Under the pieces are notes generated by a model, which made no database searches, was not told the DNA's origin, and was given only the letters and a program-made list of their open reading frames with translations. Positions 17,929-60,977 of a stretch of 64,000 nt of DNA are shown here, in pieces. Origin of the DNA: an archaeon (GTDB lineage Archaea > Hydrothermarchaeota > Hydrothermarchaeia > JALTZZ01); the NCBI GenBank assembly GCA_027051165.1, contig JALTZZ010000011.1, positions 5,556 through 69,555 of the forward strand, read 5' to 3'. Each line of letters starts with the position of its first letter. The stretch's first letter is position 1. The translations under genes and the position numbers were made by a program.

Positions 17929-17940
17929 TCACAACTGTGA
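17929..17940. promoter_or_regulatory. Near-palindrome TCACAACTGTGA, copy 2
   Basis: One mismatch to copy 1; sits just 3' of vapC. Confidence 0.35.
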
Positions 17941-17946
17941 AGACAT

Positions 17947-18609: not shown

Positions 18610-18638
18610 ATCCTTTCACCTATTCTTAACGTCGTTTC

Positions 18639-18650
18639 TCACAGCTGCGA
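18639..18650. promoter_or_regulatory. Near-palindrome TCACAGCTGCGA about 30 nt upstream of the putative antitoxin start, copy 3
   Basis: One mismatch to copy 1; promoter-proximal, consistent with an autoregulatory operator. Confidence 0.35.
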
Positions 18651-18750
18651 AAAGTTGTTCAGAACATTCCTCAGCAAGAACTTAAATGCTTTGAACCTTC
18701 TATCAGAAATAAAGCTCAAGGAATATTTAGATATGGAAAAAAAGGAAAAA

Positions 18751-18791
18751 TATAGCCCGGGGCGGATTCGAACCGCCGTCTCGGGATCCAG
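18751..18791. repeat. Direct repeat partner (attL/attR) within and adjacent to tRNA-Gln
   Basis: Identical 41 nt to 3366-3406. Confidence 0.7.
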
Positions 18792-18826
18792 AGTCCCGAA
18801 TGATTGACCAGCTACACCACCGGGCT
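18753..18826 (-). tRNA. tRNA-Gln (anticodon CUG)
   Basis: Reverse complement AGCCCGGTGGTGTAGCTGGTCAATCATTCGGGACTCTGGATCCCGAGACGGCGGTTCGAATCCGCCCCGGGCTA folds as a cloverleaf: 7-bp acceptor stem, anticodon loop CTCTGGA, T-loop GGTTCGAATCC. No encoded CCA. Confidence 0.85.
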
Positions 18827-18859
18827 GTTGCAGATCAACAATCCTCTAAAACATTAACA

Positions 18860-18870
18860 TTATAAAAATA
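18860..18870 (-). promoter_or_regulatory. TATA-box-like element upstream of tRNA-Gln
   Basis: Minus-strand TTATTTTTATAA about 35 nt upstream of the tRNA 5' end. Confidence 0.35.
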
Positions 18871-19010
18871 ACAAAAAATTAAAAATAAAAAGAATTAAGA
18901 AGTTTTCTTTAGCTTCCAGTAGAAGTCAGTCGTATATAATGGGTCCCCAAATCTTGGATACTTTTTATAGTTAACCTTTCTCAGCTTATCAAAGATCTCA
19001 AAGAAGTTTT

Positions 19011-19853
19011 TCAACGTATCACCCCGGCAAGCTTTTCAAGTCTCCTTATTCTCTCCTCAGTTGGAGGATGCGTGCTGAACAATTTAATAATCGTTCTCCC
19101 GCTTAAAGGATTTACTATGAACATATGCGATGTTGCAGGGTTCGCATCCATGGGTATTTGCCTCACCGCATACTCAAGCTTCCTTAATGCACTCGCAAGT
19201 GCAAGTGGTTTATGAGTGATCTTTGCTCCGGTTTCGTCTGCCATAAATTCTCTTGTTCTTGAAATTGCCAGCTGAATTATTGTGGCAATTATAGGTGCTA
19301 TTATCGCCATTAAGAGTGCACCAACTACTTCAGCCTTATCTCTATCCCTTGCAGAGAAGAGAACAGCCCACTGAGCCATATAGGCAAGCATTGAAATTGC
19401 ACCAGCTATTGTGGCTGCAACCGTGCTTACAAGGGTATCTCTGTTCTTTATATGTGCTATTTCATGCCCAATTACCCCTTCAAGTTCATCATCATCAAGC
19501 AGCCTTAATATTCCCTGAGTAACGGCTACTGCTGCATGATTTGGATCTCTACCAGTTGCAAAGGCGTTTGGAGTTTCAGTTGGTATTATATAGACCTTTG
19601 GCTTTGGTATGCCAGCACTCATTGCAACCCTATCAACGATTCTGTGAAGCCTCGGTGCCTCTGCTGGACTAACTTCTTTAGCACCATACATTGCAAGAAC
19701 GATTTTATCACTATACCAGTATGCGGTGAAGTTCATCAATGCAGCAAAGAGAAAGGCAACGATAACACCTGCAGGACCACCTATAATCGCTCCTATTGCA
19801 AGCAGTATTCCTGTAAGTGCTCCAAGCAGCAAGGCTGTTCTTAACATTCCCAT
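19011..19853 (-). CDS. htpX: HtpX-type M48 zinc metalloprotease
   Basis: [10 protein letters not shown] HExxH motif; TM segments; 280 aa. Confidence 0.85.
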
Positions 19854-43852: not shown

Positions 43853-43982
43853 TTTTTAAATCGCTCTTATATCTTTTCTGGTTGGTAGCTGAACAAATGC
43901 AACATGATTTTAAGCTTAAAAGCGAGAAGTTTCAACTAAAAGGGTTATAAGGCGTTTTTAAATTAATGCGGGTATTTCATCT

Positions 43983-45056
43983 TTGAAGGCTTTTCCCAAC
44001 GTTATTTCAGAGATCTCAGAGACTTCCGCTGTGCCAACTAATTCTACGAAAATTAACATTCAGGGGTCAAAATTGAATGAAGCAGTAGAAGAGCTTAATA
44101 AAATGGTAAAGTTTAGTTTAAACGGAAAATACTTCTATACTACTAAGGGAAGCAGACTTTTAAGGATTTTACCAATAATAAGGAAGAGAAAAGTATTTAC
44201 CACGAGAGACATAGCCAAAGAGCTTGGAGAAGATGTAAGGAGAATATCAGACGTCTTAACATTATTATACAAGAGAGGAGCAATTGAGAGAACACCTGTA
44301 ATATCCTTAGACAGGAACGTAAGGGAAAGAATTTACTACCTGAAAGGCTATGAATACTTAGTTCCAGAGTATTTACTAAACAAATTAGATCCAGATGACA
44401 GGAAGTTTATTGAAGAGCTTATTTTTTCAAAGACTTTGAAGAGTAGCATAAGGCTAGAAAAAGAAGGATTCAGAAACTTCAAAGTCTTAAACAACTTTGT
44501 AAAAGTAGGCTTAGTAAAGAAGAAGACTATACATCTTTGGCACGAAAACGATAGATCCCTAGTAAACGTATTCTATTCACCAAGGCTAAAAGAAAAAGAA
44601 ATTGAGAGACTTATAGAGAAAGAAAAGGAAATACTAAGGGAATACGTTAAAAATGCTGTAAGGAACGGTAGAACACTTGAAAAAGAGGTAGAAGAGTTAG
44701 CATGGAAAATAACCTTTAAGCCTGTTGACGTAAAGAGAAACCAAAGGATAAAGCTTAGAAATGGCATTGAAGTAGAGTTCGATGTTATAGCTATTTTTAA
44801 GCCATTCATTAAAGATAAACCAATAGGCTACTGCTATGGCAAGTGTTTAGTTGTAGCGTTTAGCTGCAAGGAGCTCGCAAGCGGTAACTCAGTTCTCGAG
44901 ATAGTAGCGAATGCAAGGGACATATTCCCTAATGCTATAGTTGTCTTGGTTGCAGAGAATATAACAGAAAGCGTTCTAAGAGAAGCAGAAAAGAGGGAAA
45001 TATTACTTATAGCAAGTAAAAAGCTCAAAGAGTTAAGAGAATTAGCAAAGGACTAA
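43983..45056 (+). CDS. Element protein: winged-helix N-region plus C-terminal restriction-endonuclease-like region
   Basis: KEVFTTRDIAKELGEDVRRISDVLTLLYKRGAIERT wHTH-like; C-terminal DVIAIFKP...CLVVAFSCKE. True start may be M41 (44103). Confidence 0.4.
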   Translation: MKAFPNVISEISETSAVPTNSTKINIQGSKLNEAVEELNKMVKFSLNGKYFYTTKGSRLLRILPIIRKRKVFTTRDIAKELGEDVRRISDVLTLLYKRGAIERTPVISLDRNVRERIYYLKGYEYLVPEYLLNKLDPDDRKFIEELIFSKTLKSSIRLEKEGFRNFKVLNNFVKVGLVKKKTIHLWHENDRSLVNVFYSPRLKEKEIERLIEKEKEILREYVKNAVRNGRTLEKEVEELAWKITFKPVDVKRNQRIKLRNGIEVEFDVIAIFKPFIKDKPIGYCYGKCLVVAFSCKELASGNSVLEIVANARDIFPNAIVVLVAENITESVLREAEKREILLIASKKLKELRELAKD

Positions 45057-45080
45057 CTAACAACGATTTTCCATAGTTCC

Positions 45081-46475
45081 ATGGATAAAGAAGAAAAAAT
45101 AAAAGTATTGGAACTATTGTATCAATCTGGCATTGTCTCAATACCATATATTTTTTCAGTGCTATACGAGAAAAAAGATGCATGCTTAGACATTAGATTT
45201 AAGAGAAGAAAAATAAAACAGCTTCAGCGGTTTTTCAATGAGCTACATGACTTAGGAATCGTGAAAAAAGAGAGATATGGGAAGATTGTTTTTTACAAAT
45301 TAAACGAAGTCCGCAAGGACATAATTAGCTCGGTAATTAAGACAAAGTATTATTCAAAAAAATCAAAAAGGTCAAATTCGCTTCAAAAGCTTTTTTACAT
45401 CGTAAATTCGTTAGATAATAAGGAAAATTTAACGGGAAGAATGAAAAATATAGATATTTTAAGCAATACAATAATGCTAAATAACGATGTCAAAGCGAAA
45501 ATAATAAACGAATTTTTGTATTATATCATGAACATAAACAATAAAATCGTTATTTTCAAAAAAACGGAAGATAAACATGAAATAACAGAGGACGGCTCAG
45601 TTATTCTATATGACCAACCAGAGTATTTAGCATATGACTACAGGGTAAGGTTTAATTCGGCAAGATGGTTCAAAAATGTAAACAGATTTATAAGAAATGC
45701 ATTTGAGGAAGCAGGAAAGAGATTTAAATGGGCAGTTCACATAACTTTAACGGTAAATCCTAAGAAGTTTAACAACCACGTAGAAACAGTAATAAAAGCA
45801 AAAAAGCAATTAAACAGTTTTTTAACAACATTACGTTATCAGCAAAAGAAATTATATGAAAAGGGCTTAAGCAAACATAAAAAACTATATTATTTATGCT
45901 TTACAGAATTCGGGGAAGAAAACGGGTTAATACATTTTCATCTTATAGTTTTTGGAAGAAGAAGGATAGCAGATATTAAAAACTTAGAAGAAAAGAAATG
46001 GAAAATAGGCTATGTAAAAGCGAAACAATTAGTTTATAAGCGTGGAATTGGATGGACTTACCCCAAATGGAAGAACCGACCAAAAGATTTTGACAAAAGA
46101 GTTAAAAAAATTTTAGGCAACAAATATAGCTTTAAATTCCCAATTAAGCTATATTTCTACTTCTCATTACCTAAGATGAAGAAGAAGGATGATAAATTAG
46201 AGAAAGATGATTACGATGGCTTAGATCCTTACTTTTTATTAAATTATGCTTTATTGTTTACATACAATCTAAAGTATATCACTTACAGCAGAAACATTTT
46301 AAAGTGGAACGTAGAACCTTATGGAATAAGATATATTGACCTTCCAAATGATAACTATGAATTTTTTGCTGTATGCTATGAATGGGATCTAAAAACAACT
46401 TTTATTGGAAAGTATAGCTTATATGATTTGCTGTTTTATTCGGATGCTTTTATCATAAAATCGAAAGGAGGTTGA
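45081..46475 (+). CDS. rep: HUH-superfamily rolling-circle replication initiator (Rep)-like protein with N-terminal wHTH
   Basis: Motif I HITLTV, motif II (HUH) HFHLIVF and Tyr/Lys motif GYVKAKQLVYK, all in canonical order. Confidence 0.6.
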   Translation: MDKEEKIKVLELLYQSGIVSIPYIFSVLYEKKDACLDIRFKRRKIKQLQRFFNELHDLGIVKKERYGKIVFYKLNEVRKDIISSVIKTKYYSKKSKRSNSLQKLFYIVNSLDNKENLTGRMKNIDILSNTIMLNNDVKAKIINEFLYYIMNINNKIVIFKKTEDKHEITEDGSVILYDQPEYLAYDYRVRFNSARWFKNVNRFIRNAFEEAGKRFKWAVHITLTVNPKKFNNHVETVIKAKKQLNSFLTTLRYQQKKLYEKGLSKHKKLYYLCFTEFGEENGLIHFHLIVFGRRRIADIKNLEEKKWKIGYVKAKQLVYKRGIGWTYPKWKNRPKDFDKRVKKILGNKYSFKFPIKLYFYFSLPKMKKKDDKLEKDDYDGLDPYFLLNYALLFTYNLKYITYSRNILKWNVEPYGIRYIDLPNDNYEFFAVCYEWDLKTTFIGKYSLYDLLFYSDAFIIKSKGG

Positions 46476-46939
46476 GAACAATGACAGAAACGTATGGATA
46501 TTTTTGCCCAAAATGCGAAATAAGGTGGGTAAGATATCTAAATAAGGGAGAATTTTTAGCTTGTGGTTGTGGGGTAAAAAAGGAAGATGCTCCATATATA
46601 TACAGAAAGCACTATGGAAACGATAGAACGCAAATCTACATAAAATTCAAAGACATAATAATAGAAAGAACCTTTAAAACAGAGGAAACGAAGAAAATAG
46701 AAGAAGAATTAAAGAAGCTAGTAAAAGGAAACAAATACGAAGATTTACTAAAGAAAGCGATAGAAAACGCTTTGTATGGAATGAGTCACTACGACCACTA
46801 TTGGGTAAGGTGCAGAAAATGCAAACACTATCTAGGAAGACTTAGAAAAAGAAAATGTAAGCTCCACAGATGGCTTAGTATTGGTTGCAAAGATTTTATA
46901 AAAAGAAAAAAGCCATTAAATGATATAATAGCAATATAG
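46472..46939 (+). CDS. Multi-zinc-ribbon protein
   Basis: CPKCEIRW...CGC and CRKCKHYLG...CKLHRW...C. Confidence 0.45.
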   Translation: MRTMTETYGYFCPKCEIRWVRYLNKGEFLACGCGVKKEDAPYIYRKHYGNDRTQIYIKFKDIIIERTFKTEETKKIEEELKKLVKGNKYEDLLKKAIENALYGMSHYDHYWVRCRKCKHYLGRLRKRKCKLHRWLSIGCKDFIKRKKPLNDIIAI

Positions 46940-46941
46940 AG

Positions 46942-47178
46942 GTGAATAAGATGCCATTCAGTAGAAAAGAAAGAAAATTTCTGGAAGAACTACTTAAGCT
47001 TAATAAACCAAGTGCAGATGATGTAGTAAGAGCATTTTACAAAGTTTATGGAGAGAACAATCATGCAAACTATCCTTACGTAGTAAAGCATAGAATAAAA
47101 AAGAAAGTAGAACAAATGGAAGAAGATTTAGAATTATACTACAAAGTTCAGCATATTTTACAGCTATTAGGCTACTGA
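46942..47178 (+). CDS. Small hypothetical protein of the element
   Basis: 78 aa; 2-nt gap to the previous gene. Confidence 0.35.
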   Translation: MNKMPFSRKERKFLEELLKLNKPSADDVVRAFYKVYGENNHANYPYVVKHRIKKKVEQMEEDLELYYKVQHILQLLGY

Positions 47179-47636
47179 CAGCAATTATAAGCAGAATACC
47201 TATAAACTAACGGTCTTAATTTATCCTTATTTTATATATTTTAAGAATGAAATAGGATTTTTGATATCTGCTGCCTGCTGAGCTCCTGCAGGATCTTGCT
47301 ATGGTCCTATGCACATTAATTAATATTTTATAATGTAGTTTATTATAGATCATAAGTTTGTAAGCGCTTCTGGAACTTCCGGAAACCTAATCAGAGCCTA
47401 TAAGCTCTAAGCTGCAGATGTCTAACAACAATCTGTAAGAATGGACCATTATGACAACTATATGTAAGATATGCAACTGTTACATGATTATGCACAACCA
47501 TATAAATAAGCATAAATTAAGCTTAATATTCAAAAATAAGGAAATTAAACAAAAATTGTAAAAAGTAACTCACGCCAAACCGTTGGTAACAAACCTCAGT
47601 TACTTTTATTAATATTAAAAAGATGTATTATAAAGC

Positions 47637-48149
47637 ATGGGAAAGAAGATCACGATCACAGGCTCTAAGATATTTGATATAGGTTATAGATACTTCTTAG
47701 TAGAGCAAGCTTTAGGCTTTGGAATAGAAAGGTTTAGAGCTGTTAATTTAAGAAAAGAAAATAAATTATTAGTTTTTGTTGAAGGAAATGAAGAAGCTTT
47801 AAACGAGTTCGTAGAATTTGCTAAAAATAATTTTCCTAAGGATGCTCAAGTAGATAACATTGAAGTTGAAGACTACAAAGGCTATGTTCCAAAAGTAGAT
47901 CAGTTTTTGCTTTTGTTTAATGTCCAACAGTCAAGAAAGTTTATAGAAATTGGTAAAGAGGTAAGAGACGAAGTTAAACAAACAAGAGAAGAGCTTGGCA
48001 AAAAGATAGAAGATGTAGGGAAGAAGGTTGATAAAGTAGCAGACAAAATAGATGAGCTAAGAACAGATCTAAAGAGCTATATGGATGAAAGATTCAGAAT
48101 AATAGAAGAGGACATAAGAAAAATAAAAGCAAAATTAGGGATGATTTAA
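47637..48149 (+). CDS. Acylphosphatase-like N-domain plus coiled-coil protein
   Basis: ITGSKIFDIGYRYFLVEQALGFGIERFRAVNL...LLVFVEG resembles the acylphosphatase VxGxVQGVxFR...G..G.V.N...G.V pattern. Confidence 0.35.
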   Translation: MGKKITITGSKIFDIGYRYFLVEQALGFGIERFRAVNLRKENKLLVFVEGNEEALNEFVEFAKNNFPKDAQVDNIEVEDYKGYVPKVDQFLLLFNVQQSRKFIEIGKEVRDEVKQTREELGKKIEDVGKKVDKVADKIDELRTDLKSYMDERFRIIEEDIRKIKAKLGMI

Positions 48150-48374
48150 ATGCAACAAAAGAAAACTAAACCAAAAAAGCAACAGAAAAGATTTTTCTCA
48201 TTTTTAGATGATCTTAAAGGGGAAGATGTAGAAGTAATAATGCATAGCGGCATGAAGTTTGAAGGCAAAATATTAGATGTAAGCGATTTTGAGCTAAAAT
48301 TTAAGCCTAAAGATAAAGAAGAAGTTTGGTATATACATAAAAGCCATATAGCAATTTTAAAGCTTAAATTTTAG
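48150..48374 (+). CDS. Small basic protein (possible nucleic-acid binding)
   Basis: KKTKPKKQQKRF basic N-terminus followed by a beta-rich segment. Confidence 0.3.
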   Translation: MQQKKTKPKKQQKRFFSFLDDLKGEDVEVIMHSGMKFEGKILDVSDFELKFKPKDKEEVWYIHKSHIAILKLKF

Positions 48375-48507
48375 CTATACGTCTCAAAGTTCTTAGCTCG
48401 GTAACTAATTGTAAAATCAAAGCTGAAATATTTTCAGTATTATATTCCTTTTTTAGTTCTTCAAGCTTCTTCATAGCTTCATCGTTGAGATATACACTTA
48501 CGCCCAT
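48364..48507 (-). CDS. Ribbon-helix-helix (CopG-like) small DNA-binding protein (47 aa; not in ORF track)
   Basis: MGVSVYLNDEAMKKLEELKKEY..., an RHH beta-strand followed by a helix; divergent from the structural operon. Confidence 0.5.
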   Translation of the reverse strand: MGVSVYLNDEAMKKLEELKKEYNTENISALILQLVTELRTLRRIAKI

Positions 48508-48654
48508 AGTCGTTTATATATACGGCAATTGTATAAAAATCTTTCGTCATCTAAGATTATCTTAGAAAATCTTAGAAAGTCTAATATTATCTTTAAATTC
48601 CAAAAGAAAGGTATTTATAAGGTATTTTTCAGAAATTATGTTGGAGGTGATAGC

Positions 48655-49632
48655 ATGAAATTTAAACATATTTTATTAACTTTTGTCTTGGTTTTGGTAG
48701 CGATTTCAAGCGTTTCAGCAAGCATATATGACTTTGAGAATACCAACGAAATTCAGTTGTTCGAACAGCTAATGATAGACAGCAACAACACTATCTCCAC
48801 ATTAAATACCAGCTATGCAACTATAACCGTTACTAATGGCTTAGTAATGCTCAAAAGTTTGGACAATATACACATGCCGGCAATAGCAATACCCTATCAG
48901 CAGGGGCAAGTCTATGCCGTTGAAGGTAAAAACCTAAAAATCGGAGTTATAGCGAACAATACACTACAAGGAGCAATAGACATAATTGACAGAGGATATA
49001 TATACTTTGATAGTCAAACAGCAGCAGTATTAACCGATGGAGCTTTCAGCATAAAGGTATTTTCAACAACACCAATAGAGAAAGTTGTTATATACTCAAA
49101 AGATGGTTTAATAGATAAATTAGCCATTGATACACCAAAAACAGAGCTAAGCAGCGGTAGCCATCTATATCAATGGTCAGGAACTACAAGCGTAACAAAA
49201 AGAATAACACTAACTGCTGGAGCAAGATATAAATTCTATCTGGTGCAAAGCGGAGATACTGATGCTTTTCTGTTTAAACCAAGCAATCCAAATTATGGAA
49301 GTGCATCTGAATACCAAAGCTATCATTGGCTAGTTAATAATGCAGACTTTAAGCACTACATAGGAACAAAATACTACACAGCACCAGAAAGCGGAACATA
49401 TAAGCTCGTAATTAAGATTTTATCAGGAGACAGCTGGAGCTACACTATTGATTGCATATCAGGATGTAGCAGCAATACTCCACCTCCGGATAATAATCCA
49501 CCGCCAAGCCAAGATAATCCAGCAGGAATAGTAAAGAACATGGATGATAAAAAGAAAATGCTGCTAATTGGTATCGGAGCTTTTGCAGTAACGCTATTTA
49601 TAGTGTTCTTGGCTGGAGGGAGAAGAAAATGA
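48655..49632 (+). CDS. Secreted protein with signal peptide, Pro-rich stalk, C-terminal TM anchor and basic tail (spike/adhesin-like)
   Basis: GGAGGTGA RBS; MKFKHILLTFVLVLVAISSVSA signal peptide; PPPDNNPPPSQDNP; LLIGIGAFAVTLFIVFLAGGRRK. Confidence 0.6.
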   Translation: MKFKHILLTFVLVLVAISSVSASIYDFENTNEIQLFEQLMIDSNNTISTLNTSYATITVTNGLVMLKSLDNIHMPAIAIPYQQGQVYAVEGKNLKIGVIANNTLQGAIDIIDRGYIYFDSQTAAVLTDGAFSIKVFSTTPIEKVVIYSKDGLIDKLAIDTPKTELSSGSHLYQWSGTTSVTKRITLTAGARYKFYLVQSGDTDAFLFKPSNPNYGSASEYQSYHWLVNNADFKHYIGTKYYTAPESGTYKLVIKILSGDSWSYTIDCISGCSSNTPPPDNNPPPSQDNPAGIVKNMDDKKKMLLIGIGAFAVTLFIVFLAGGRRK

Positions 49633-50195
49633 TGCATATATTCATATTACTAATTTTATTGGCTATCCCTACTGCTGTTGCACAGGAATTACCCATACAG
49701 CAGTTTAATAATGAAATAGAAGCTTATCAACTGCAACAGGCACAGCTTGCACAGCTTGCAGCTCAATATGATCTAACCAAAGCCATAACAGTTTATAGCG
49801 GAGTATTGTTTAATGGATGGAAAAGCTATGGAACTATAGAGATCCCCAAGGATTGGAAAAAGGTCTACCTAATAATAATACCCACAGAAGCCCCAAGAGC
49901 TGATGTAAGAATATATGCAATGATTAATGGTCAGGAAGTATTAGCAAATGCTCCCTTAGGAGCAACAGTAAGCGTTGATATAACTGATGCTCTATCTTCT
50001 ACAAGAACAGCAAGCATAAATATATATGCTTCAGGATCAGTCAGAGCAAAAGTTCTCGTAGCTCCACCAAATCCAGCAGTAATGCAGGCTGAAGAGCTAA
50101 ACAGCAACATCAAAAATACAAAATATATACTAATAGGTTTAGCAGGCATAATTTTAGCAGCAATAGTTGTAACAGCAGGAAGAAAGAGGAGATAA
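49629..50195 (+). CDS. Secreted protein with signal peptide and C-terminal TM anchor plus basic tail
   Basis: ILLILLAIPTAVAQ signal; C-terminus YILIGLAGIILAAIVVTAGRKRR. Confidence 0.55.
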   Translation: MMHIFILLILLAIPTAVAQELPIQQFNNEIEAYQLQQAQLAQLAAQYDLTKAITVYSGVLFNGWKSYGTIEIPKDWKKVYLIIIPTEAPRADVRIYAMINGQEVLANAPLGATVSVDITDALSSTRTASINIYASGSVRAKVLVAPPNPAVMQAEELNSNIKNTKYILIGLAGIILAAIVVTAGRKRR

Positions 50196-50197
50196 AA

Positions 50198-50350
50198 ATG
50201 ATTGCCTTAATTTTTATTTTATTATTATTTCTAATGGCAGCAGTAACGGTAGTTGTCATAGATCCAATCAAGCTTGCAATAATAATGCTGTTTTTCCTTG
50301 GAGTATTTTGGGTATATCTTGCCCATGCCCATGGAGGGCAGAAAAAATGA
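50198..50350 (+). CDS. Small (50 aa) two-helix membrane protein (not in ORF track)
   Basis: MIALIFILLLFLMAAVTVVVIDPIKLAIIMLFFLGVFWVYLAHAHGGQKK; ATGA overlap with the next gene. Confidence 0.45.
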   Translation: MIALIFILLLFLMAAVTVVVIDPIKLAIIMLFFLGVFWVYLAHAHGGQKK

Positions 50351-50976
50351 AATTACTAATAATTCTACTGTTACTATTGCCAATAGTGTATGCTCAGGAT
50401 GTAGAAGAGATAGAACTTGGAAAACCACCAGAACTAAGTAGCACAGGCTACACAATAAAAAAGGGAGAATATGTTACCTGTTGGATAAAGATGCCAGATA
50501 ATCCATTAATAGGAGAAAAATATGGCGGAGCAGTAGGACTATATTCAACAAATCAGGACATCAGGATATACGCTGTTGCAAAGGGATTTATAAGACATAC
50601 ACCAAGGCTTGAAGTATATGAAAATTCTCAGCTAAAGACCCATGCAGAGTTCGAAGAAAATCAGTTTAACGAGGAATTTCAAGTGAGATTGGCATATTTA
50701 AACGATGGAACAATAAAAATAGGATACAGGTATGCAACAGTCACTGAATGGCAGATTTTGTATAGTGTTTTAGCAAAGTCTTCAATGTATTCTGTTAAAG
50801 GATTAAAAGCCTATAAATGCGAGAAAAGACAAATTGCACCACCAAGTCCACCAAGTAACGGAAACAATCCTTTTGATGACAGTGAACCTTTTGACAAATC
50901 AGATAACAAGAAATACCTACTTGCTGCAGGAGCTTTGATAATAATAGCATTAATACTGCTGGTGACAAGAAAATGA
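50347..50976 (+). CDS. Secreted protein with signal peptide, Pro/Ser-rich linker, C-terminal TM anchor and basic tail
   Basis: MKLLIILLLLLPIVYAQ; PPSPPSNGNNP; LLAAGALIIIALILLVTRK. Confidence 0.55.
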   Translation: MKLLIILLLLLPIVYAQDVEEIELGKPPELSSTGYTIKKGEYVTCWIKMPDNPLIGEKYGGAVGLYSTNQDIRIYAVAKGFIRHTPRLEVYENSQLKTHAEFEENQFNEEFQVRLAYLNDGTIKIGYRYATVTEWQILYSVLAKSSMYSVKGLKAYKCEKRQIAPPSPPSNGNNPFDDSEPFDKSDNKKYLLAAGALIIIALILLVTRK

Positions 50977-52073
50977 ACGAAGTTTTGTTTTATATTTTAT
51001 TTAGCATTCCATTTGGCTTAACTCTATATTTAACTTTAGTAAGACACATAAAAGCTCATGTTATTGACAATAGAGACCATGCAAGATTCTTTTTATATCC
51101 ATATCCTCCAAGAAGGATGCTTATTCTTCATAAGCTCGATGGAAAATTTAGCATATACTATGATGATCAAATAAAAGAAATAAAAGGAGATGAAAAAAGT
51201 GAAGTATCATGTAAAAATCATGATGAAGTAGATCATTTTGTTTTAGATGGAAATCTAAGCGATTACAGCTTAAAAGTAAGCATGTATGATGCAAGAGGAG
51301 CAAAAGGTTATGATAGTCCTTTCAGCTTGGCATGGCGATGGATCGTAGCAGCAAGCTTTACCGTATATATAAACTACATTGCAATGATAGAAGGCTGGTT
51401 CCCAAGAAATGGCGAACCCGACATGTTTTGGGCAATGCTTGGAACTATGGCTTTTTTCCTAAGTTTAATGTGGTTCCTAACGAACATTATTAGATTTCGA
51501 GATGAAACAATAGAATACATATATCTGCTCCCTAAATCAATAAATCAGGGGTTAACAGAATACGTTCATGCTCCGGAGCCTCTTAGCAACCTAAGCCTAC
51601 CAAACTTTCTCAAAAGACTCGGTAAAGAAATTAAGGTAGAGGTTCCAAATGAGCTTAAAGAAGTATTTGAAAATCTAAAAAAGGGAAAAAAGGACGTTTT
51701 AGTATCAGCATTAAGCCTTACCAAGTTTTATGAAGCTGAAGCTTGGAGAAAAGCACTAAGCCAAAGCTTAGAGGACATGATGAAGCTAAGAAAAGCTGGA
51801 GAAACAATTGCTCTCATAAAGATGAAGGGGCTTATATATAGACCTGTAATGGTCTATGTTGTCATCTTTATATTGGGCTTAATTATTGGCTACATATTTG
51901 GTAACATATTTTCAATTGGCTTTGAAGAACCAACGGAGCATGCAAGGAACTTAACTCAAGTTCCCATCATATCACAGATACCACAGAACATAACACTACC
52001 TCAGCCTCAGCTACCGGAGCTCCCAGAGGCTCCTCTTAAACCTGCTCCTCCACCACCTCCACCAACGAGGTGA
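50973..52073 (+). CDS. Polytopic membrane protein with Pro-rich C-terminal tail
   Basis: N-terminal TM, central TM pairs, C-terminal TM, PELPEAPLKPAPPPPPPTR. Confidence 0.45.
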   Translation: MNEVLFYILFSIPFGLTLYLTLVRHIKAHVIDNRDHARFFLYPYPPRRMLILHKLDGKFSIYYDDQIKEIKGDEKSEVSCKNHDEVDHFVLDGNLSDYSLKVSMYDARGAKGYDSPFSLAWRWIVAASFTVYINYIAMIEGWFPRNGEPDMFWAMLGTMAFFLSLMWFLTNIIRFRDETIEYIYLLPKSINQGLTEYVHAPEPLSNLSLPNFLKRLGKEIKVEVPNELKEVFENLKKGKKDVLVSALSLTKFYEAEAWRKALSQSLEDMMKLRKAGETIALIKMKGLIYRPVMVYVVIFILGLIIGYIFGNIFSIGFEEPTEHARNLTQVPIISQIPQNITLPQPQLPELPEAPLKPAPPPPPPTR

Positions 52074-52423
52074 GACCCATGATTGAGCTTATAGCAAGCA
52101 TAATTCTCATTGTTTTAATGGTTCAGGTCTTCATTATAATATATTTAAAGACAAAGAGCTTGTTTAAGGCATGGATATTTGCTTTAATAATAGGCAAAGC
52201 AATAGTTGTTGTCTTTTGGGCATTTGGTATTGAACACTCATTAGGAACTTTATACATATACAACAAAAGGAGTAATGAAGTAATATCCTTTGAGATTACT
52301 TCAAGTCATGTCATATTTTTAGCTTTTTTAAGCTCATTGATTATAAGTTTGTTTTGGTATGACATAATAAGATATGCTCCACCTTCATTGAGAAAAAGAA
52401 TAAAAGATAAGAGGGGGATATAA
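52070..52423 (+). CDS. Small membrane protein (3-4 TM)
   Basis: 117 aa hydrophobic. Confidence 0.4.
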   Translation: MRPMIELIASIILIVLMVQVFIIIYLKTKSLFKAWIFALIIGKAIVVVFWAFGIEHSLGTLYIYNKRSNEVISFEITSSHVIFLAFLSSLIISLFWYDIIRYAPPSLRKRIKDKRGI

Positions 52424-52735
52424 ATGGAGTTCTACGATGCACCAAAAATGATAGAATTCGGAATAAAGCTTGGAAAAGACAGCGTAGATAGAATTTTAGA
52501 AGTTCTCAGAAAAGGAGATCTAAAGGAGATATTAGCATACATAGATGAAGAAGCTGCAAGAGGATTATTTTTTGCTTTTGCTGATTTGGAAATTCACAAG
52601 AATATTGAGTATATTGCAAGTAGCAGCAAGAAACCTGAATATCTTGAAGTAGAGTTCCTAAGAGCATTTTCTCTAAGCGAGAAGATAATAAAATTCTCTA
52701 CACCTAAGTTTGATCTTCAGGTGGAAAGAGGATGA
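52424..52735 (+). CDS. Hypothetical soluble protein of the element
   Basis: 103 aa; start/stop overlap with the following NTPase gene. Confidence 0.35.
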   Translation: MEFYDAPKMIEFGIKLGKDSVDRILEVLRKGDLKEILAYIDEEAARGLFFAFADLEIHKNIEYIASSSKKPEYLEVEFLRAFSLSEKIIKFSTPKFDLQVERG

Positions 52736-53601
52736 ACATACTAAACGTAATTGCTGGAGAAAAGAGAGTTGATGGAGTAGAACTTAGAACAATAACTATA
52801 ATAGGAACTATGGGAAGCGGTAAAACAACATTAGCGAGACATTTAGCTTCAAGGGGCTACAGAGAGTTAACACAAAGAGGAGTTGATGACAGCAGAATAT
52901 TAATAGTTCACTTTTATAGATCAAGCATAACCGCTATTCTCAATTATTTAACCGAAAATTTTGATTTAGAAGATATAGAATTTCTCTATCTTATAAATGA
53001 CGATGCTGCTTATATGAACATGAGCAGAAGAGCAATGAATGATATAAACATAAATGATGCAAGGCAGTATATTGTTATTAGGCATAAGCTTGCGGAGAAT
53101 AATTTTAAAGGCGTTTTGATTGCTGTTCACTTAACACAACTTTATTATTTGCTGGACAAAGTGTTAAGGGATTCTCAAGTTTTAATGTTTAAAAGCATGA
53201 GTAGGGATAATAATGAGAGGAAATATTTAGCTACACTTTTAGGTAGGCATTATTTTAGAGTTCTAAGAAAGATAAGCGATGATATAGCGTATGGGAACAA
53301 AGATAGGTATATAGAAGCATTAAGCAGAGCAGTTGCAGTTGTTGGTTCAAGAAGACTTATTTACGAGTTTAAAAAAGAAGATCCACCAAGAAATATCTAT
53401 TATGAAGTATCTCCAGAGGAAATAAATATAGAACCTAAGATTACTTTGAACACTTTAAGGGATTTTGTAAGAGGTTGTGGGATACAGGCTAAAGATACAA
53501 AAATTTACAGGCTATATAAGCTGATTAATGCTTATTTAAATGGCTTGGATGTAGATATGCTACTTCAGGAGATCCAAGAGGAGGTGGAAGCTCATGCTTA
53601 A
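52732..53601 (+). CDS. P-loop NTPase with N-terminal Walker A
   Basis: IIGTMGSGKTTLARHL; 289 aa; last-but-one gene of the operon. Confidence 0.6.
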   Translation: MNILNVIAGEKRVDGVELRTITIIGTMGSGKTTLARHLASRGYRELTQRGVDDSRILIVHFYRSSITAILNYLTENFDLEDIEFLYLINDDAAYMNMSRRAMNDININDARQYIVIRHKLAENNFKGVLIAVHLTQLYYLLDKVLRDSQVLMFKSMSRDNNERKYLATLLGRHYFRVLRKISDDIAYGNKDRYIEALSRAVAVVGSRRLIYEFKKEDPPRNIYYEVSPEEINIEPKITLNTLRDFVRGCGIQAKDTKIYRLYKLINAYLNGLDVDMLLQEIQEEVEAHA

Positions 53602-54349
53602 GTATGTAGTTATATGTATTATTCTCTGTTCCTTATTCCCTGTTGCAGCATCTGAACAAGAGCAGCTAATAAAAATGATGGTGGACAAAGGCTGGGACAA
53701 AGGAGTAGCAATTGTTACTGCTGATGGATACTATGGAACAGGCTGGTGGATTGATAGGAATACCATGGTAACAGCAGCACATGTAGTTGAATATAAGTAT
53801 AAGACTGTTAGAGTAATTCATGGATATTTCGAAACTACAGGAAGAGTTGTCTCAATAGACCAAAAAAGAGACATAGCAATAATAAAAACCCAAAGCATGC
53901 CTAAGGATGCCTATATTTTTGTGATTGATAAAAGAGTTGAAAAAACGGAAACCGTATATGCAATAGGCTACCCTTATGAACTTATGCAGCTTGAGAGAGA
54001 CGTTTACAGCCTAAGTGCAAATCCAAGAATAGCAAAGGGAACTATTAGCTGGATATCTCCAGATATTGGCATTGCTGAGATAACAGTTAGCGTGGATGCA
54101 GGTAACAGCGGTGGTCCGGTAGTAAATGAAAATGGTGAGGTAGTAGGCTTGGTAACTTTTGCTTTAAAAGGTAGGGCTGCTACCCTTTATTTTATAACAT
54201 TAAGCAAGGAGCTTGAGGGAAATGTTAACTATAGAGTAGGATTAGGATTGTCTCATGAACAAAGAGAAATGCTTAAATCTATCGCATTAGGGATATTTAT
54301 CTCTGTATTCACTACATTCTTAGTGCTTTATGGGTTCAGAAAGAGGTAA
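53594..54349 (+). CDS. Membrane-anchored trypsin-like (S1/HtrA-like) serine protease
   Basis: Signal peptide; TAAHVV (His), DIAIIK (Asp), GNSGGPVV (Ser); C-terminal TM plus FRKR. Confidence 0.65.
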   Translation: MLKYVVICIILCSLFPVAASEQEQLIKMMVDKGWDKGVAIVTADGYYGTGWWIDRNTMVTAAHVVEYKYKTVRVIHGYFETTGRVVSIDQKRDIAIIKTQSMPKDAYIFVIDKRVEKTETVYAIGYPYELMQLERDVYSLSANPRIAKGTISWISPDIGIAEITVSVDAGNSGGPVVNENGEVVGLVTFALKGRAATLYFITLSKELEGNVNYRVGLGLSHEQREMLKSIALGIFISVFTTFLVLYGFRKR

Positions 54350-54816
54350 TTTTTCAATTAAAAAATTATAAAGGACCTTAGCATTCTCTCTGGAGCTTTT
54401 AATAGTCCACTTTATACTACCCAAAATTTCTACAACACCTTTCTTCCTAACTATGCCTACTTCCTTAAATTTTATACCGTCTATCTGTCTTAAGTTCATA
54501 CTCAGCATGTTATCCTTTTTTAAAATCAATCCAGAACGTTTATAGCAAATAAGCCTTTTATTTGTAATAACTAATTCACTATATTTTTCATCATTTACCA
54601 CAAACTTCTTTAAATCAAACTTATATTGAATCTCCTCATTAGGCAATAAAAAATCTTGCAAACCTATAGTAAGATCACCATTAACCTTTATATATCAGTT
54701 ATGACAATATATAACACAAAAATGGGAACGGAGGTGGAAGACAACATGGAAACACCAACAACCACCTGTAAGGATAAGTATGTACTTTTCTTATATATAA
54801 AAGTTACGGTCGTTTA

Positions 54817-54902
54817 TGCGGGGGGAGGGATTTGAACCCTCGCAGGCTCTACGCCAACGGATCCTGAGCCCGTCCCCTTTGACCAGACTCGGGCACCCCC
54901 GC
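54817..54902 (-). tRNA. tRNA-Leu (anticodon CAG) with long variable arm
   Basis: Reverse complement GCGGGGGTGCCCGAGTCTGGTCAAAGGGGACGGGCTCAGGATCCGTTGGCGTAGAGCCTGCGAGGGTTCAAATCCCTCCCCCCGCA; anticodon loop CTCAGGA. Confidence 0.8.
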
Positions 54903-55769
54903 ATATTCAAGCAGAGCTTTACCAAATCCATAGCCGAAGTATGTGCTCGTTATTCCAAGTATCTCCTGAAGGAAAGTTTTTTCACGATAATATACAATCT
55001 CAGGTTTTTTTGTTATATTTGCAAGCTTTTTCGCAATCTCTATGGCATCCTCCTTGGTTCCGACCTCATCCACAAGTCCCACTTCCTTTGCCTGAAGTCC
55101 AGTATACAACCTACCTTCGGCAATCTTTCTTACATAGTCTTTGCTCAAGTTTCTGTTATCAGCCACCTCCTCGATAAACATATCGTATATTTGATAGCTT
55201 ATATTTTCGAGCATCTCTATTTCCTCCTGCGTTAGCGGTCTGTATCCGCTTCCCATGTCCTTATATTTCCCAGCCTTAATTACGGTTACATTTATTCCAA
55301 GCTTCTTTAAAAGTCCAGAATAATCGGTAAATATTGATATAACCCCTATACTACCGGTTAAGCTCCCCTTACTTGCAACTATATAGTCACATGCGCTTGC
55401 AATATAGTATGCACCGCTTGTGCCTATCTCGCCAATCCAAGCAACAACTGGCTTGTTTGACTTCTTTATAATGTTTGCTATCTCATCACTCGCCACCACG
55501 CTACCGCCGGGACTGTTTATTTCTATCAGTATTGCCTTAACACTGTTATCGGATAACGCCCTCTCAAAGAACCTTTTAAACTTCTCAGGTGTAGTTGCAC
55601 TCGTGCTAAAGAACCCCTCTTGTTCGTCGAGGGATATAACCCCTTTAACCTCTATTATTGCTATTTTTTCTCCACCAACCTTTTCCCTTGGAGAAATCAT
55701 ATATACAAATACTATTGAAATTATAAGAAGGCTGAATATCATGAGTAGAAATAAAAATATTAAACGCAT
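54849..55769 (-). CDS. sppA: Signal peptide peptidase SppA (S49 family)
   Basis: N-terminal TM; GSVVASDEI; catalytic Ser in SLTGSIGVIS and Lys in VIKAGKYKDMGSG. The last about 18 codons overlap the tRNA-Leu gene. Confidence 0.7.
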   Translation of the reverse strand: MRLIFLFLLMIFSLLIISIVFVYMISPREKVGGEKIAIIEVKGVISLDEQEGFFSTSATTPEKFKRFFERALSDNSVKAILIEINSPGGSVVASDEIANIIKKSNKPVVAWIGEIGTSGAYYIASACDYIVASKGSLTGSIGVISIFTDYSGLLKKLGINVTVIKAGKYKDMGSGYRPLTQEEIEMLENISYQIYDMFIEEVADNRNLSKDYVRKIAEGRLYTGLQAKEVGLVDEVGTKEDAIEIAKKLANITKKPEIVYYREKTFLQEILGITSTYFGYGFGKALLEYAGVPESGQRGRAQDPLA

Positions 55770-55826
55770 GTTAACACCACCATTAGGAGATACCATATTA
55801 ACATAGTAAAAGCTGGAGGTGATTGG

Positions 55827-56018
55827 TTGGGAAGAATAAAGACAACGCTTATAAAGAGGGTAGCAAGAGAACTTGTTGAAAGGTATAGGCACATGCTTAC
55901 AACAGATTTCGAAAAAAATAAGGAAATTTTAAAGGAAATTTTAGTAACACACGACAAAACAATGAGAAATAAAATAGCCGGATACGTTACGAGACTCATG
56001 AAGAGGCAAAGCTCATAG
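55827..56018 (+). CDS. rps17e: Ribosomal protein S17e
   Basis: MGRIKTTLIKRVARELVERY... 63 aa. Confidence 0.8.
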   Translation: MGRIKTTLIKRVARELVERYRHMLTTDFEKNKEILKEILVTHDKTMRNKIAGYVTRLMKRQSS

Positions 56019-59062: not shown

Positions 59063-59701
59063 ATGCCAAAGTTCATTACAATAGTAAGGAAGGATATAAT
59101 TCAGGAGTTTAGAGATAAGCAGACATTAAATACAATGTTCCTGTTCTCATTTTTAACCGTAGTTATTTTTAGCTATTCTCTTTTCGAAGTATCTTTTGTT
59201 CCTCATCTTTTATGGATCATAATACTTTTTGCAAGCCTGCTCGGTCTTTCGAGAGCATTTTTTAAAGAAAAGGAAGTAGGAACTCTTGAAGGTCTGCTAA
59301 TTTCACCAATATCCCCTACAAGCATTCTAATAGCAAAGATAATCTACAACTTTATACTCATCCTTATAATTGAATTTTCGCTGTTCATTCTCTTTTTAAT
59401 CTTCTTTGAAGTGAATTTTGGAATCTATGGTTTTTTATTTACACTTTATGCAACTCTCGGCTTTGTTGTTGTTATTTCAGTTTTTTCATCTTTCCTTTTA
59501 AATTCAAAGGCAAAAAGCATGATGCTCCCAGTAATATCAATGCCTATAATTTTCCCACTTCTTTTAGCAAGTATTTCCGGATTGAGAAAGATTATGGACG
59601 GCAATCTTGATATCCTAAGCGAAATAAAATTAATCACATCATATATAGGTATCGTATCTGTTATTTCTATGTTAACGTTTGAGTATGTAATTGAGGATTG
59701 A
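59063..59701 (+). CDS. ccmB: Haem exporter permease CcmB
   Basis: 212 aa, 6 TM, precedes CcmC/D/E/F. Confidence 0.6.
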   Translation: MPKFITIVRKDIIQEFRDKQTLNTMFLFSFLTVVIFSYSLFEVSFVPHLLWIIILFASLLGLSRAFFKEKEVGTLEGLLISPISPTSILIAKIIYNFILILIIEFSLFILFLIFFEVNFGIYGFLFTLYATLGFVVVISVFSSFLLNSKAKSMMLPVISMPIIFPLLLASISGLRKIMDGNLDILSEIKLITSYIGIVSVISMLTFEYVIED

Positions 59702-59784
59702 CCTCCTCCGCCCTCTAAAGGGCGAGGCTTTCTTAGCGATGTTTTGTAATTTTTTTTAATTGGTTAAATTTATCTACGTATGCG

Positions 59785-60438
59785 ATGCTGCCGCTTGTAA
59801 TCCTTGTATACTTACTGGTAATCTATGGAATGTATAATGCTCTGCTTGTATTTGGACCAATAGACTTCTATGGAAAGCCTTGGGACAGCTACAGAATCGT
59901 CTTCTTCCACGTTCCCGCTGCTGTTACAAGCTATGTTGCGTTTACTGTAACCCTCATCTTCAGCATTGGATATCTTGCAAAAAGAAAGGTTACATACGAT
60001 ATTATAGCAAGTAAATCGGCAAAACTTGGGCTTATTTTTGCCACGCTTACGCTGGTAAGCGGAATAATATTCTCTAAGGAAGGCTGGGGTGCTTATTGGA
60101 ACTGGGATCCAAGGCAGACAACGATGCTCATTCTCTGGTTCGTGTATGCTGGTTATCTCGTTCTCAGAAGTGCAATTGAGAATGAGGAACAGAAGGCAAA
60201 GGTTAGTGCAGCCTATGGAATATTCGGATACGTTACTATACCGCTGACATATCTATCAACGAAGCTCTGGTTTTCCTTACATCCGACAGCAAGCAAGTTT
60301 GGATTATCTCCAGCAATGAAACCTGTTCTCGTGATAATGATAATTTCGATGATAGCTCTATATGCATACATGTTAAGGATTGAGGTTAAGTTGGAGAAGC
60401 TGGAAAGATACATAAAGGTGAGGGTATATGGGCTATGA
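59785..60438 (+). CDS. ccmC: Haem exporter CcmC
   Basis: WWD domain WGAYWNWDPRQTT. Confidence 0.75.
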   Translation: MLPLVILVYLLVIYGMYNALLVFGPIDFYGKPWDSYRIVFFHVPAAVTSYVAFTVTLIFSIGYLAKRKVTYDIIASKSAKLGLIFATLTLVSGIIFSKEGWGAYWNWDPRQTTMLILWFVYAGYLVLRSAIENEEQKAKVSAAYGIFGYVTIPLTYLSTKLWFSLHPTASKFGLSPAMKPVLVIMIISMIALYAYMLRIEVKLEKLERYIKVRVYGL

Positions 60439-60562
60439 ACCCGTGTTTGCTGTAGCCGTTCTGCTCTGGACGGGGCTTATAGTATATCTCATTACGCTCG
60501 ATATTAAATTAAGGAAACTTTCAAAACTCATAAAAGAGGTTGAAGAATATGAAAATAAGTAA
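60428..60562 (+). CDS. ccmD: CcmD-like small single-TM protein (not in ORF track)
   Basis: MGYEPVFAVAVLLWTGLIVYLITLDIKLRKLSKLIKEVEEYENK; overlaps the ccmC end and the ccmE start. Confidence 0.45.
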   Translation: MGYEPVFAVAVLLWTGLIVYLITLDIKLRKLSKLIKEVEEYENK

Positions 60563-60977
60563 GAAAAATTTTAAAATATACGTGGGAGTTGTGGTTGTAG
60601 CTCTCTTCATGCTTATAGGGTTTAGTGCACTCTTCGGATTCTTAAGCCCCACTCTAAGCGTTAGTGAAGTTTCCGAAAAATATCTTGGTAAGGTTGTTCA
60701 AGTTCATGGTTACGTTGTAAAGGAGAGTATTTCTTGGGTTCCGGGAAACTTAAACTTTACTATGACGGATGGAAAAGCGTATATAAATGTTGTATACTAT
60801 GGAACCTTGCCAGCAAACTTTCCTGTTGGGAGTGAGATAAACGAAAAGTCGAAAATTGAGGTTCTTGTTACTGGAAAGCTTGTTGATAAAAATACTATTT
60901 TAGCCAAAGGTAGTAAATCTCTGCTCGTTAAGTGTCCAAGTAAATATCAAGAAATTGAAAAAGAGGTGAAAAAGTGA
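60540..60977 (+). CDS. ccmE: Haem chaperone CcmE, archaeal CxxxY variant
   Basis: N-terminal TM, OB-fold-like, C-terminal LVKCPSKYQE (CxxxY in place of HxxxY). Confidence 0.6.
   Translation: MKNMKISKKNFKIYVGVVVVALFMLIGFSALFGFLSPTLSVSEVSEKYLGKVVQVHGYVVKESISWVPGNLNFTMTDGKAYINVVYYGTLPANFPVGSEINEKSKIEVLVTGKLVDKNTILAKGSKSLLVKCPSKYQEIEKEVKK

Follow-up and report, generated by a model that had tools for sequence, protein, structure and literature searches.

A pTP2-family HUH Rep with a variant motif III in a candidate virus-like element of an uncultured archaeon

Does the open reading frame (ORF) at 45081-46475 of archaeal contig JALTZZ010000011.1 encode a rolling-circle replication initiator, and what would such a protein replicate? 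The DNA analysed here (the window) is a stretch of 64,000 nucleotides from this metagenome-assembled contig, obtained from sample SAMN12239309. The ORF, here called Rep, was confirmed as 464 amino acids (aa) on the + strand with an ATG start. A preliminary description, made from the sequence alone, had taken it for a Rep-like protein with three rolling-circle motifs and possibly a divergent family. Rep was found to be a member of the known pTP2-like / alphapleolipovirus-type HUH family, in a clade with an altered motif III, and it lies in a candidate integrated virus-like element of ~11 kb at a tRNA-Leu gene, together with a block of virion genes resembling those of the archaeal viruses AGV1 and SSeV. 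Rep is probably the replication module of that element.

Family, fold and motifs of Rep

Pfam returned a single match to Rep, PF23343 (REP_ORF2-G2P, 'Replication-associated protein ORF2/G2P'), which covers aa 220-322 at 41.1 bits (cutoff 27.8), and PHROG 713 ('DNA replication initiation') matched at E 3e-5. PF23343 was also matched above threshold by HRPV-1 ORF1, the pTP2 Rep, M. voltae P0020 and the Reps of the circular contigs described below. At E<=1 the Pfam scan of Rep gave no match to Rep_1, Rep_2, Rep_trans (PF02486), gemini/circo Rep or PF07232, the last being the pGRB1-like alphapleolipovirus Rep (PMC13107129). The pTP2 Rep gave a sub-threshold Rep_1 match (23 bits, cutoff 33). Rep had no match by sequence in the PDB and none in NCBIfam or PADLOC, and IMG/VR scans with the Rep alignment and with the membrane protein and ATPase of the element returned no relatives.

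Rep looked like an orphan because word-indexed searching of 5.8 billion proteins gave back the protein alone, or at most M. voltae P0020 besides. Exhaustive HMMER searching of 1.84 billion cluster representatives recovered 78 relatives at E<=1e-3 (14 at E<=1e-10), several of them full-length (427-507 aa) at 30-40% identity. The 18 closest relatives (22-36% identity) were taken as alignment A1, from which a family profile was made. This profile matched HRPV-1 ORF1 at 131.6 bits, with profile positions 17-396 on ORF1 residues 50-408, and the pTP2 Rep ORF at 241 bits, with 34 and 25 bits for two ORFs upstream of it. By profile and alignment blocks the homology of Rep to both proteins is collinear, running through the winged helix-turn-helix (wHTH), the linker, the HUH core and a C-terminal LALYWA..R block. 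Residues R190, T224, N245, E276, G282, H285, H287, F291, G292, G310, W325, Y358, Y360 and S403 are invariant in the 18 sequences. Alphapleolipovirus Reps have been divided into 'pGRB1-like' and 'pTP2-like' plasmid clusters (PMC6668415, PMC10599561), the pTP2 Rep standing in the 'pTP2-like' HUH Rep cluster of Kazlauskas et al. 2019 (PMC6668415), and homologues of RepTP2 in methanogen chromosomes have already been noted (PMC5988781). Because the 78-member family includes the pTP2 and HRPV-1 Reps, Rep belongs to a known and published family and not, as had been suggested, to a divergent new one; the unusual part is the replacement of its motif III by YFYF.

The features of Rep are as follows (coordinates, strand, description and evidence).

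45081-46475, +: Rep, HUH rolling-circle replication initiator of pTP2 / HRPV-1 ORF1 type (PF23343, family profile, AlphaFold2 model, BFVD)
45081-45305, +: N-terminal winged helix-turn-helix, aa 1-75, presumed origin-binding domain (model, Foldseek, family conservation)
45732-45755, +: motif I, AVHITLTV, aa 218-225 (strand 217-225; T224 invariant, T222 nearly so)
45927-45953, +: motif II (HUH), LIHFHLIVF, aa 283-291, with H285 and H287 (both invariant; strand 284-291)
46008-46040, +: GYVKAKQLVYK, aa 310-320, the 'motif III' of the preliminary description, a core beta-strand (strand 310-320; G310 alone conserved)
46152-46163, +: probable true motif III, clade-specific YFYF, with Y358 and Y360 (the only invariant tyrosines of the 18-sequence alignment; short helix 357-361)

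An AlphaFold2 model of Rep, computed with A1 as the alignment, had a mean pLDDT of 81.5 and a pTM of 0.70. The winged helix occupies aa 3-74 (helix 3-16, strand 18-20, helices 21-29 and 38-57, strands 61-66 and 69-74), and the best Foldseek matches of the model in the PDB were the winged helices of ArsR/SmtB, MecI and AspA. This domain is conserved across the family and in the pTP2 ORF at 38-421. After it come a disordered, low-confidence linker (86-98), a segment of helices (100-152) and beta-hairpins (155-186), so that the wHTH character previously assigned to an N-terminal region of ~200 aa holds for aa 3-74, the remainder being linker, helices and beta-hairpins. The core consists of strand 217-225, helix 233-260, strands 270-277 and 284-291, helix 299-306, strands 310-320 and 324-326 and helices 337-348 and 357-361, which is the strand-helix order expected for a Rep-type HUH domain. 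Against BFVD, Foldseek placed HRPV-1 ORF1 first (E 2.8e-14, 430 columns), followed by Microviridae gpA/A* initiators; the model thus carries a HUH-endonuclease fold. With motif I, the HUH motif and the predicted alpha/beta (RRM-like) fold, Rep is confirmed, at the level of sequence and model, as a Rep-class protein of the HUH superfamily, and the earlier assignment as a Rep-like rolling-circle protein is borne out by Pfam, by full-length profile homology to HRPV-1 ORF1 and the pTP2 Rep, and by structure modelling.

All three strings first named as rolling-circle motifs are present in Rep, and motif I and the HUH motif stand. The pattern HUHUUU occurs once in Rep and in 0.3% of composition-preserving shuffles. 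The third string, the supposed Tyr-Lys motif, does not stand: it is a non-conserved beta-strand, whose family form is W-K-L-G-[FYV]-V-x-x-x-x-L, with G310 invariant and Y311, Y319 and K320 not conserved. With 37 Tyr and 69 Lys in Rep, ~10 occurrences of Y-x(2,3)-K are expected by chance, and 8 are present. The tyrosines Y358 and Y360, in the context K-L-Y-F-Y-F-S-L-P, align with YLKKYLxK of pTP2, M. voltae P0020 and others and with YLGKYLSK of HRPV-1, and are the likely catalytic tyrosines as judged from conservation and position in the alignment. The distance from motif I to motif III is then ~145 aa, and that from HUH to Tyr is 73 aa, within the family range of 60-87 aa. The short II-III spacing reported previously arose because motif III had been misassigned; the spacing is typical of the family.

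In a census of motif III among the 78 representatives, 54 carried canonical YxxKYxxK ~60 aa after HUH, and 13, namely Rep of the window and its 12 nearest relatives, carried YFYF 65-87 aa after HUH; the remaining 11 fitted neither search pattern. Rep lacks the canonical motif at ~60 aa and has YFYF at 73 aa instead. The YFYF proteins are a variant clade in which the motif III lysines have been lost and the tyrosines are spaced i and i+2. Five metagenomic contigs of the JGI set that carry YFYF-clade Reps end in direct overlaps of 123-127 nt, implying circles of 2293, 2330, 2928 and 3135 bp (the last found twice), on each of which Rep is the sole large gene. No circularity was seen in the first few Rep-family contigs examined, the circles coming from the JGI set only. 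This circular-replicon setting suggests that YFYF proteins are still functional.

Among known systems, RepTP2 of pTP2 (Thermococcus prieurii, NC_021208) resembles Rep in belonging to PF23343, in its N-terminal winged helix and in the order of motif I, HUH, the W..G strand, the Tyr motif and a C-terminal 'LALYWA.N.RF.T.S'. pTP2 is a small rolling-circle replicon of a hydrothermal-vent archaeon, and its origin is functional in T. kodakarensis (PMC5988781). The two proteins differ in sequence (~25% identity by tblastn) and in motif III, which is YLKKYLRK in pTP2; moreover, pTP2 is a free 2 kb plasmid, whereas the rep gene of the window is chromosomal and adjoins virion genes. The parts of the pTP2 protein were found on ORFs in different frames, the winged helix on 38-421 (the 34-bit match), the linker on 418-864 (25 bits) and the HUH core on 791-1549 (241 bits); from this layout, the 'several transcriptional regulators' of pTP2 may be the N-terminal domains of one Rep, split by frameshifts or sequencing errors.

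HRPV-1 ORF1 (RCRE, Alphapleolipovirus) is the best structural match and aligned through winged helix, linker and HUH core. It differs in having YLGKYLSK, a C-terminal helix-hairpin-helix (PF14520) that is absent from Rep, and a halophilic host. Like Rep, it is a virus-borne protein of a kind thought to stem from pTP2-like plasmids (PMC10599561). The Microviridae gpA/A* and phage GPA-type initiators have a HUH core like that of Rep (tblastn E 2e-4 to 7e-3, Foldseek 1e-5 to 1e-4) and, like Rep, two motif III tyrosines, but the similarity is confined to a core of ~100 aa, they have no such N-terminal winged helix, and their tyrosines lie at i and i+4 on a helix, against i and i+2 in Rep. The Rep-Arvir proteins (SNJ2 ORF19, pRT1, pAMT11, PAV1) are also initiators of archaeal viruses and plasmids with a winged helix; their hosts are Thermococci, methanogens and haloarchaea, pleolipoviruses being included among the carriers, and their fold class is TBP-like and related to Rep_trans (PMC13107129). 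Membership of Rep in this group was considered and rejected: Rep has the HUH motifs, its fold matches are HUH Reps, and the Rep-Arvir Pfam family (PF25227/DUF7845) gave no match at E<=1.

A canonical-motif member of the family was also noted in M. voltae (contig JAGGMU010000008.1; locus L043, 1691-3727), where its NCBI name is 'rolling circle replication-associated protein'. Immediately after it come two ORFs (PF13495, then PF00589) that make up a split tyrosine recombinase, and a few kb further on there is a type III CRISPR-Cas (Cmr) cluster.

The virion block and its insertion site

Between 43983 and 54349 every gene is on the + strand except one 47-aa ORF, and the genes are tightly packed. 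The features of the element and its target are listed below.

43858-54815, +: candidate integrated virus-like element, ~11 kb (right end at tRNA-Leu; left end inferred)
43983-45056, +: 357-aa protein with a winged-helix region at aa ~57-105 (weak TrmB/MarR/HVO_A0114 wHTH matches)
46481-46939, +: 152-aa protein, zinc-ribbon-like, with two Cys-X2-Cys pairs at each end (sequence; gene in source record)
46951-47178, +: 75-aa protein, weak helix-turn-helix-like match (PF18607, E 0.02 only; gene in source record)
47179-47636, no strand: 458-bp non-coding gap separating the Rep arm from the rest, origin candidate by position only
47637-48149, +: 170-aa protein, acylphosphatase-like fold plus coiled coil (PF00708, 34.4 bits)
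48150-48374, +: 74-aa protein, Sm/SH3-like (weak LSM and RimP-SH3 matches only)
48364-48507, -: 47-aa ORF with a putative ribbon-helix-helix-like pattern (sequence; gene in source record)
48655-50976, +: three secreted, C-terminally membrane-anchored proteins (325, 188 and 209 aa) and a 50-aa hydrophobic ORF
50973-52423, +: hallmark pair of the virion block, a 366-aa membrane protein and a small membrane protein of 114-117 aa
52424-53601, +: 103-aa protein and P-loop ATPase (289 aa; AGV1 ATP-binding protein, weak AAA matches)
53594-54349, +: trypsin-like serine protease with signal peptide and C-terminal anchor (PF13365, 71.9 bits)
54320-54661, -: 113-aa bacterial-PH-domain protein, within the element (PF14470, 24 bits against a cutoff of 23)
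54816-54903, -: tRNA-Leu(CAG), 3' end toward the element (ARAGORN and Rfam)

Homologues of the virion proteins were found in AGV1 (LC208019) for the ATPase (6e-29), the protease (ORF4_262, 1e-29), the membrane protein (8e-12) and the small membrane protein (1e-5), and in SSeV (MN539721) for the membrane pair (gp33, 7e-42, and gp2, 2e-12) and the protease (gp9, 2e-10), the local gene order being the same as in SSeV. With the membrane pair and protease shared with both viruses, the ATPase with AGV1 only, and the synteny, the element falls into the AGV1/SSeV-like group. A model of the 366-aa membrane protein (pLDDT 73) gave only two significant BFVD matches (E 1e-18 and 3e-15), of 334 and 317 aa, lengths that fit the SSeV and AGV1 proteins; no pleolipovirus or canonical fusellovirus protein was among its BFVD matches. 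AGV1 is temperate, with a circular genome of 18.2 kb and an SSV-type integrase (bioRxiv 10.1101/2021.04.21.440749). Unlike the element, AGV1 and SSeV have Thermoproteota as hosts. AGV1 is also set apart by its SSV-type integrase and its lack of a Rep, and no homologue of its major virion protein was detectable in the element. The secreted proteins have signal-peptide-like N-termini and a C-terminal transmembrane segment with a basic tail, and are putative virion surface proteins. The first of them had no match in the phage/archaeal-virus collection. A pleolipovirus affinity of the virion block found no support at the sequence level, where the HRPV-1 virion proteins gave no match to the proteins of the element.

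The eight-gene virion block (48529-54349) recurs in order, at 34-64% identity, in the uncultured loci L081/L082 and L083, and in a more distant form in L084. Orthologues of the secreted proteins stand in the same order in L081 and L083 (34-49% identity), in both of which the ATPase is 53-55% identical. In L083 an SSV-type integrase (PF16795) lies directly upstream of the virion block, beside host genes; L084 has an SSV-type integrase together with AGV1-like nuclease and ribbon-helix-helix genes. No Rep was found in any of these virion-block loci, and none of the window's other element genes was found in the 37 other Rep-family loci examined. Because the relatives of the virion block lack Rep and the Rep-family loci lack the other element genes, Rep is a portable module, here joined to an AGV1/SSeV-type virion module. 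The element is chimeric, a pTP2-type Rep plus an AGV1/SSeV-type virion block, with no integrase found. In L081 the virion block is flanked at 4052-6851 and 13902-19747 by AAA_15/AAA_21 ATPases, a DUF2357/PDDEXK_7 protein and a Mrr_cat-TrmB protein, surroundings that look like a defence-island neighbourhood.

The 'Thalassapleoviridae', AvPV1-like proviruses of vent Archaeoglobi integrated at tRNA genes (PMC10919331), have accessory genes similar to those of the element (wHTH, zinc finger, PH domain, nuclease), and those of Geoglobus carry a HUH Rep gained from Thermococcales plasmids (PMC10919331). Their Rep is reported to be of pGT5/pTP1 type, whereas that of the window is of pTP2 type, and they have VP3/VP4-like proteins and integrases, to which no similarity was detectable in the element.

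The mobility of the virion block was seen by comparison with a contig of a related strain from another sample (L003), which has the block at the same site. From 48702 to 54913 the two are 98-100% identical except in the second secreted protein (90%), with 0 mismatches over 54095-54913; the 113-aa PH-domain protein is 100% identical. From 54914 on, the chromosomes are 78-86% identical, with 21-56 mismatches per 200 bp. The break in identity lies between 54816 and 54913 and so coincides with tRNA-Leu (54816-54903), which is the insertion target of the element and whose 3' end faces it. Since a near-identical block sits in chromosomes differing by 14-22% at the site, the virion block postdates the split of the two hosts by far and has moved recently; it was inserted at, or transferred together with, the same tRNA in both. 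L003 starts at 48702, and this evidence of mobility between strains covers the virion block, not directly the Rep arm.

Within the block, 49302-50101 is a hotspot of divergence between the strains (67 mismatches in 800 bp), which takes in the C-terminal part of the first secreted protein and extends across the second. Non-synonymous changes in the hotspot equalled or outnumbered synonymous ones (10 against 2 and 23 against 19), a pattern as would be expected of host-recognition proteins.

On the left, the FAD-protein gene of the other strain is 83.5% identical and the homology ends at 43857, five bases past the stop codon. Flanking-gene synteny was not conserved across 34 loci fetched with the FAD gene, and 43857 therefore only bounds the left end of the element. 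A GC-rich inverted repeat (CCTCACAGAAG ... CTTCTTCTGTGGGG) occupies the last ~80 bases of contigs L085/L086, downstream of the other strain's FAD gene; it is at the contig end and unrelated to anything within the window. A further contig, L002, was considered as a free plasmid form and rejected, being fully collinear with the window.

Proposed replication of the element and competing readings

The reading we consider probable is that Rep, a pTP2-family HUH protein with a YFYF motif III, is the replication module of a ~11-kb virus-like element at tRNA-Leu with an AGV1/SSeV-type virion block. It builds on direct observation of the family, domain layout and conserved residues of Rep, of its clade on small circular replicons and of the mobility of the virion block at its site; what we infer is that the Rep arm and the virion block work together as a single unit and that the element has an origin and circularises. 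By analogy with HUH Reps in general, the winged helix would place Rep at the double-strand origin of a circular copy of the element, and the HUH histidines H285 and H287 would hold a divalent metal. One tyrosine (Y358 and/or Y360) would nick one strand and become linked to the 5' phosphate, the free 3' OH being extended round the circle by the host replisome. The second tyrosine, or the same one of a second subunit, would then cut the regenerated origin and reseal the displaced strand, and this second cleavage-joining step would free a circular single strand.

Several results weigh against this reading. As to the protein, solved HUH structures match the Rep model weakly (the AAV Rep origin-binding domain and SIRV1 ORF119 in the PDB, E ~0.05), YFYF has no motif III lysine, and the Pfam alignment of Rep ends at position 87 of 99, short of the tyrosine end of the profile; alignments to PF23343 end at 98 of 99 in canonical members and at 83-87 in YFYF proteins only. 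As to the origin, searches for folds, repeats and shared motifs identified no origin or nick site. The 458-bp gap (47179-47636) folds no better than shuffles (z-scores -1.3 and -0.7) and contains short imperfect inverted repeats only, such as 47552-47570 with 47598-47616, so that this gap, earlier put forward as the nicking substrate, lacks a supporting signal. No non-coding motif was common to the window and the small Rep circles. An 11-mer, TTATTCTAAAG, shared by two plasmid groups was rejected as a candidate, lying within rep coding sequence and occurring in the window at chance frequency, and a scan for bacterial-type promoters and terminators was uninformative.

As to integration, no att direct repeats of at least 10 nt were found between the element ends by repeat finder, k-mer sharing, local alignment or blastn-short, and there was no second tRNA-Leu fragment within the window. 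No ORF of the element gave a Pfam match to an integrase, including the SSV type (PF16795), and a tblastn search for a remnant with the L083 and L084 integrases returned only a 13-aa match over the tRNA. In addition, the junction between Rep arm and virion block appears in assemblies of one sample only, and an independent unitig covers 43902-47570, the Rep arm alone. The 13-aa match, which is not significant (E 0.15), pairs residues 68-80 of the L084 integrase (gene at 3747-4826) with the translated 3' part of tRNA-Leu at 54808-54846 of the window; it may mark an att site located within the integrase gene, the usual arrangement for integrases of the SSV type.

The first alternative is that two elements adjoin, a pTP2-like plasmid (~43.9-47.6 kb, ~3.7 kb) beside an integrase-less AGV1/SSeV-like provirus, with Rep serving the plasmid only. 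In its favour are the closest Rep relatives, which sit on circles of 2.3-3.1 kb without virion genes and share Rep alone, the absence of Rep from the virion-block relatives, the unitig whose ends correspond exactly to the Rep arm, and the GC content, which is 31.5% in the left Rep arm (43858-48507) and 35.5% in the virion block (48529-54349), against 37.5% in the host flanks. On the other side, the genes from 43983 to 54349 are tightly packed on one strand, the 47-aa ORF excepted, no att-like repeat separates the two parts, the integrase upstream of the L083 virion block occupies the position that the Rep arm has here, and exchange of Rep modules between viruses and plasmids has been published for pleolipoviruses and Geoglobus viruses (PMC6668415, PMC10919331). 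We hold two adjoining elements to be unlikely, but they keep some weight because the mobility evidence does not include the Rep arm and the joint between arm and block is known from one sample.

A decaying or domesticated remnant, in which the rep gene is a relic that no longer initiates replication, appears improbable. It would agree with the failure to find an integrase, att site or recognisable origin and with a motif III that has no lysine and deviates from the consensus of the family. The ORF, however, has full length when set beside relatives of 450-507 aa, and none of the invariant residues has been lost; YFYF is shared by 13 diverged representatives, the Reps of circular replicons among them, and the virion block has moved recently, being 98-100% identical (90% in the second secreted protein) in hosts differing by 14-22%.

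It would be more surprising still if the two-tyrosine HUH Rep were the integrase or transposase of the element (cf. IS91/Helitron, AAV Rep), in place of the SSV-type integrase of its relatives. Rep would then both replicate the circle and insert and excise the element at tRNA-Leu, making this an archaeal virus that integrates by a HUH mechanism. The recent mobility of the block, site-specific at tRNA-Leu and without a recognisable recombinase in the window's copy, speaks for this, as do the location of the Rep arm where L083 has an integrase and a weak match of the pTP2 Rep to Helitron_like_N (E 0.003). We judge it very improbable. The closest relatives occur as ordinary small replicons, neither terminal signals nor a target duplication turned up, and the relative in M. 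voltae has retained a tyrosine recombinase of its own. A simpler account is an integrase acting in trans, or one encoded in the left arm of the other strain.

Finally, the original proposal that HITLTV, HFHLIVF and GYVKAKQLVYK are the three motifs and that a short II-III spacing marks a new Rep family can be set aside, for although the strings exist where reported and the word-indexed search gave the protein itself only, Y311, Y319 and K320 are unconserved residues within a beta-strand, Y-x(2,3)-K occurs at chance level, and the family has 78 representatives, the pTP2 and HRPV-1 Reps included.

Implications and neighbouring genes

With Rep, the pTP2 / alphapleolipovirus Rep family now reaches an uncultured archaeon that is a distant relative of Thermococcus; no new category has to be set up for Rep. 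The YFYF clade, with its lost lysine and its i/i+2 tyrosines, is a natural test of how much change a HUH active site tolerates. The AGV1/SSeV-type virion module had previously been tied to integrase-bearing viruses of Thermoproteota and is here found in a euryarchaeal genome with a plasmid-type Rep. Its joining to Rep is another instance of module exchange between viruses and plasmids and offers a lead on how such viruses replicate, the replication mechanism of AGV1 being one that the AGV1 paper could not identify (bioRxiv 10.1101/2021.04.21.440749). In two diverged hosts, moreover, the virion block has made a recent move into one and the same tRNA, though the window's copy shows no recombinase.

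Of the smaller genes of the element, the 357-aa protein (43983-45056) had no homologue in the related loci, its PDB sequence matches being limited to winged helices; its C-terminal half might be PD-(D/E)XK nuclease-like, judged by eye from EFDVIA...FSCKE. The 152-aa protein (46481-46939) gave no significant family match. The 170-aa protein was found solely on contigs of this sample and is absent from the virion-block relatives.

Beyond the element, the flanking host genes include an A-type ATPase and ribosomal protein S17e. The nearest genomes for one flanking gene were uncultured 'Methanobacteriota' / Hydrothermarchaeota metagenome-assembled genomes (73-77% aa identity), followed by Thermococcus (63-65%). 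At the tRNA, a 139-aa ORF of the ORF list (54816-55235, +) is the antisense of tRNA-Leu plus downstream sequence, and the S49 peptidase ORF (54849-55892, -) has an over-long GTG start that runs through the tRNA, the source record giving 315 aa. At 59063-63076 the window has genes for cytochrome c maturation, which comparison with L003 showed to be CcmB/C/E/F-like.

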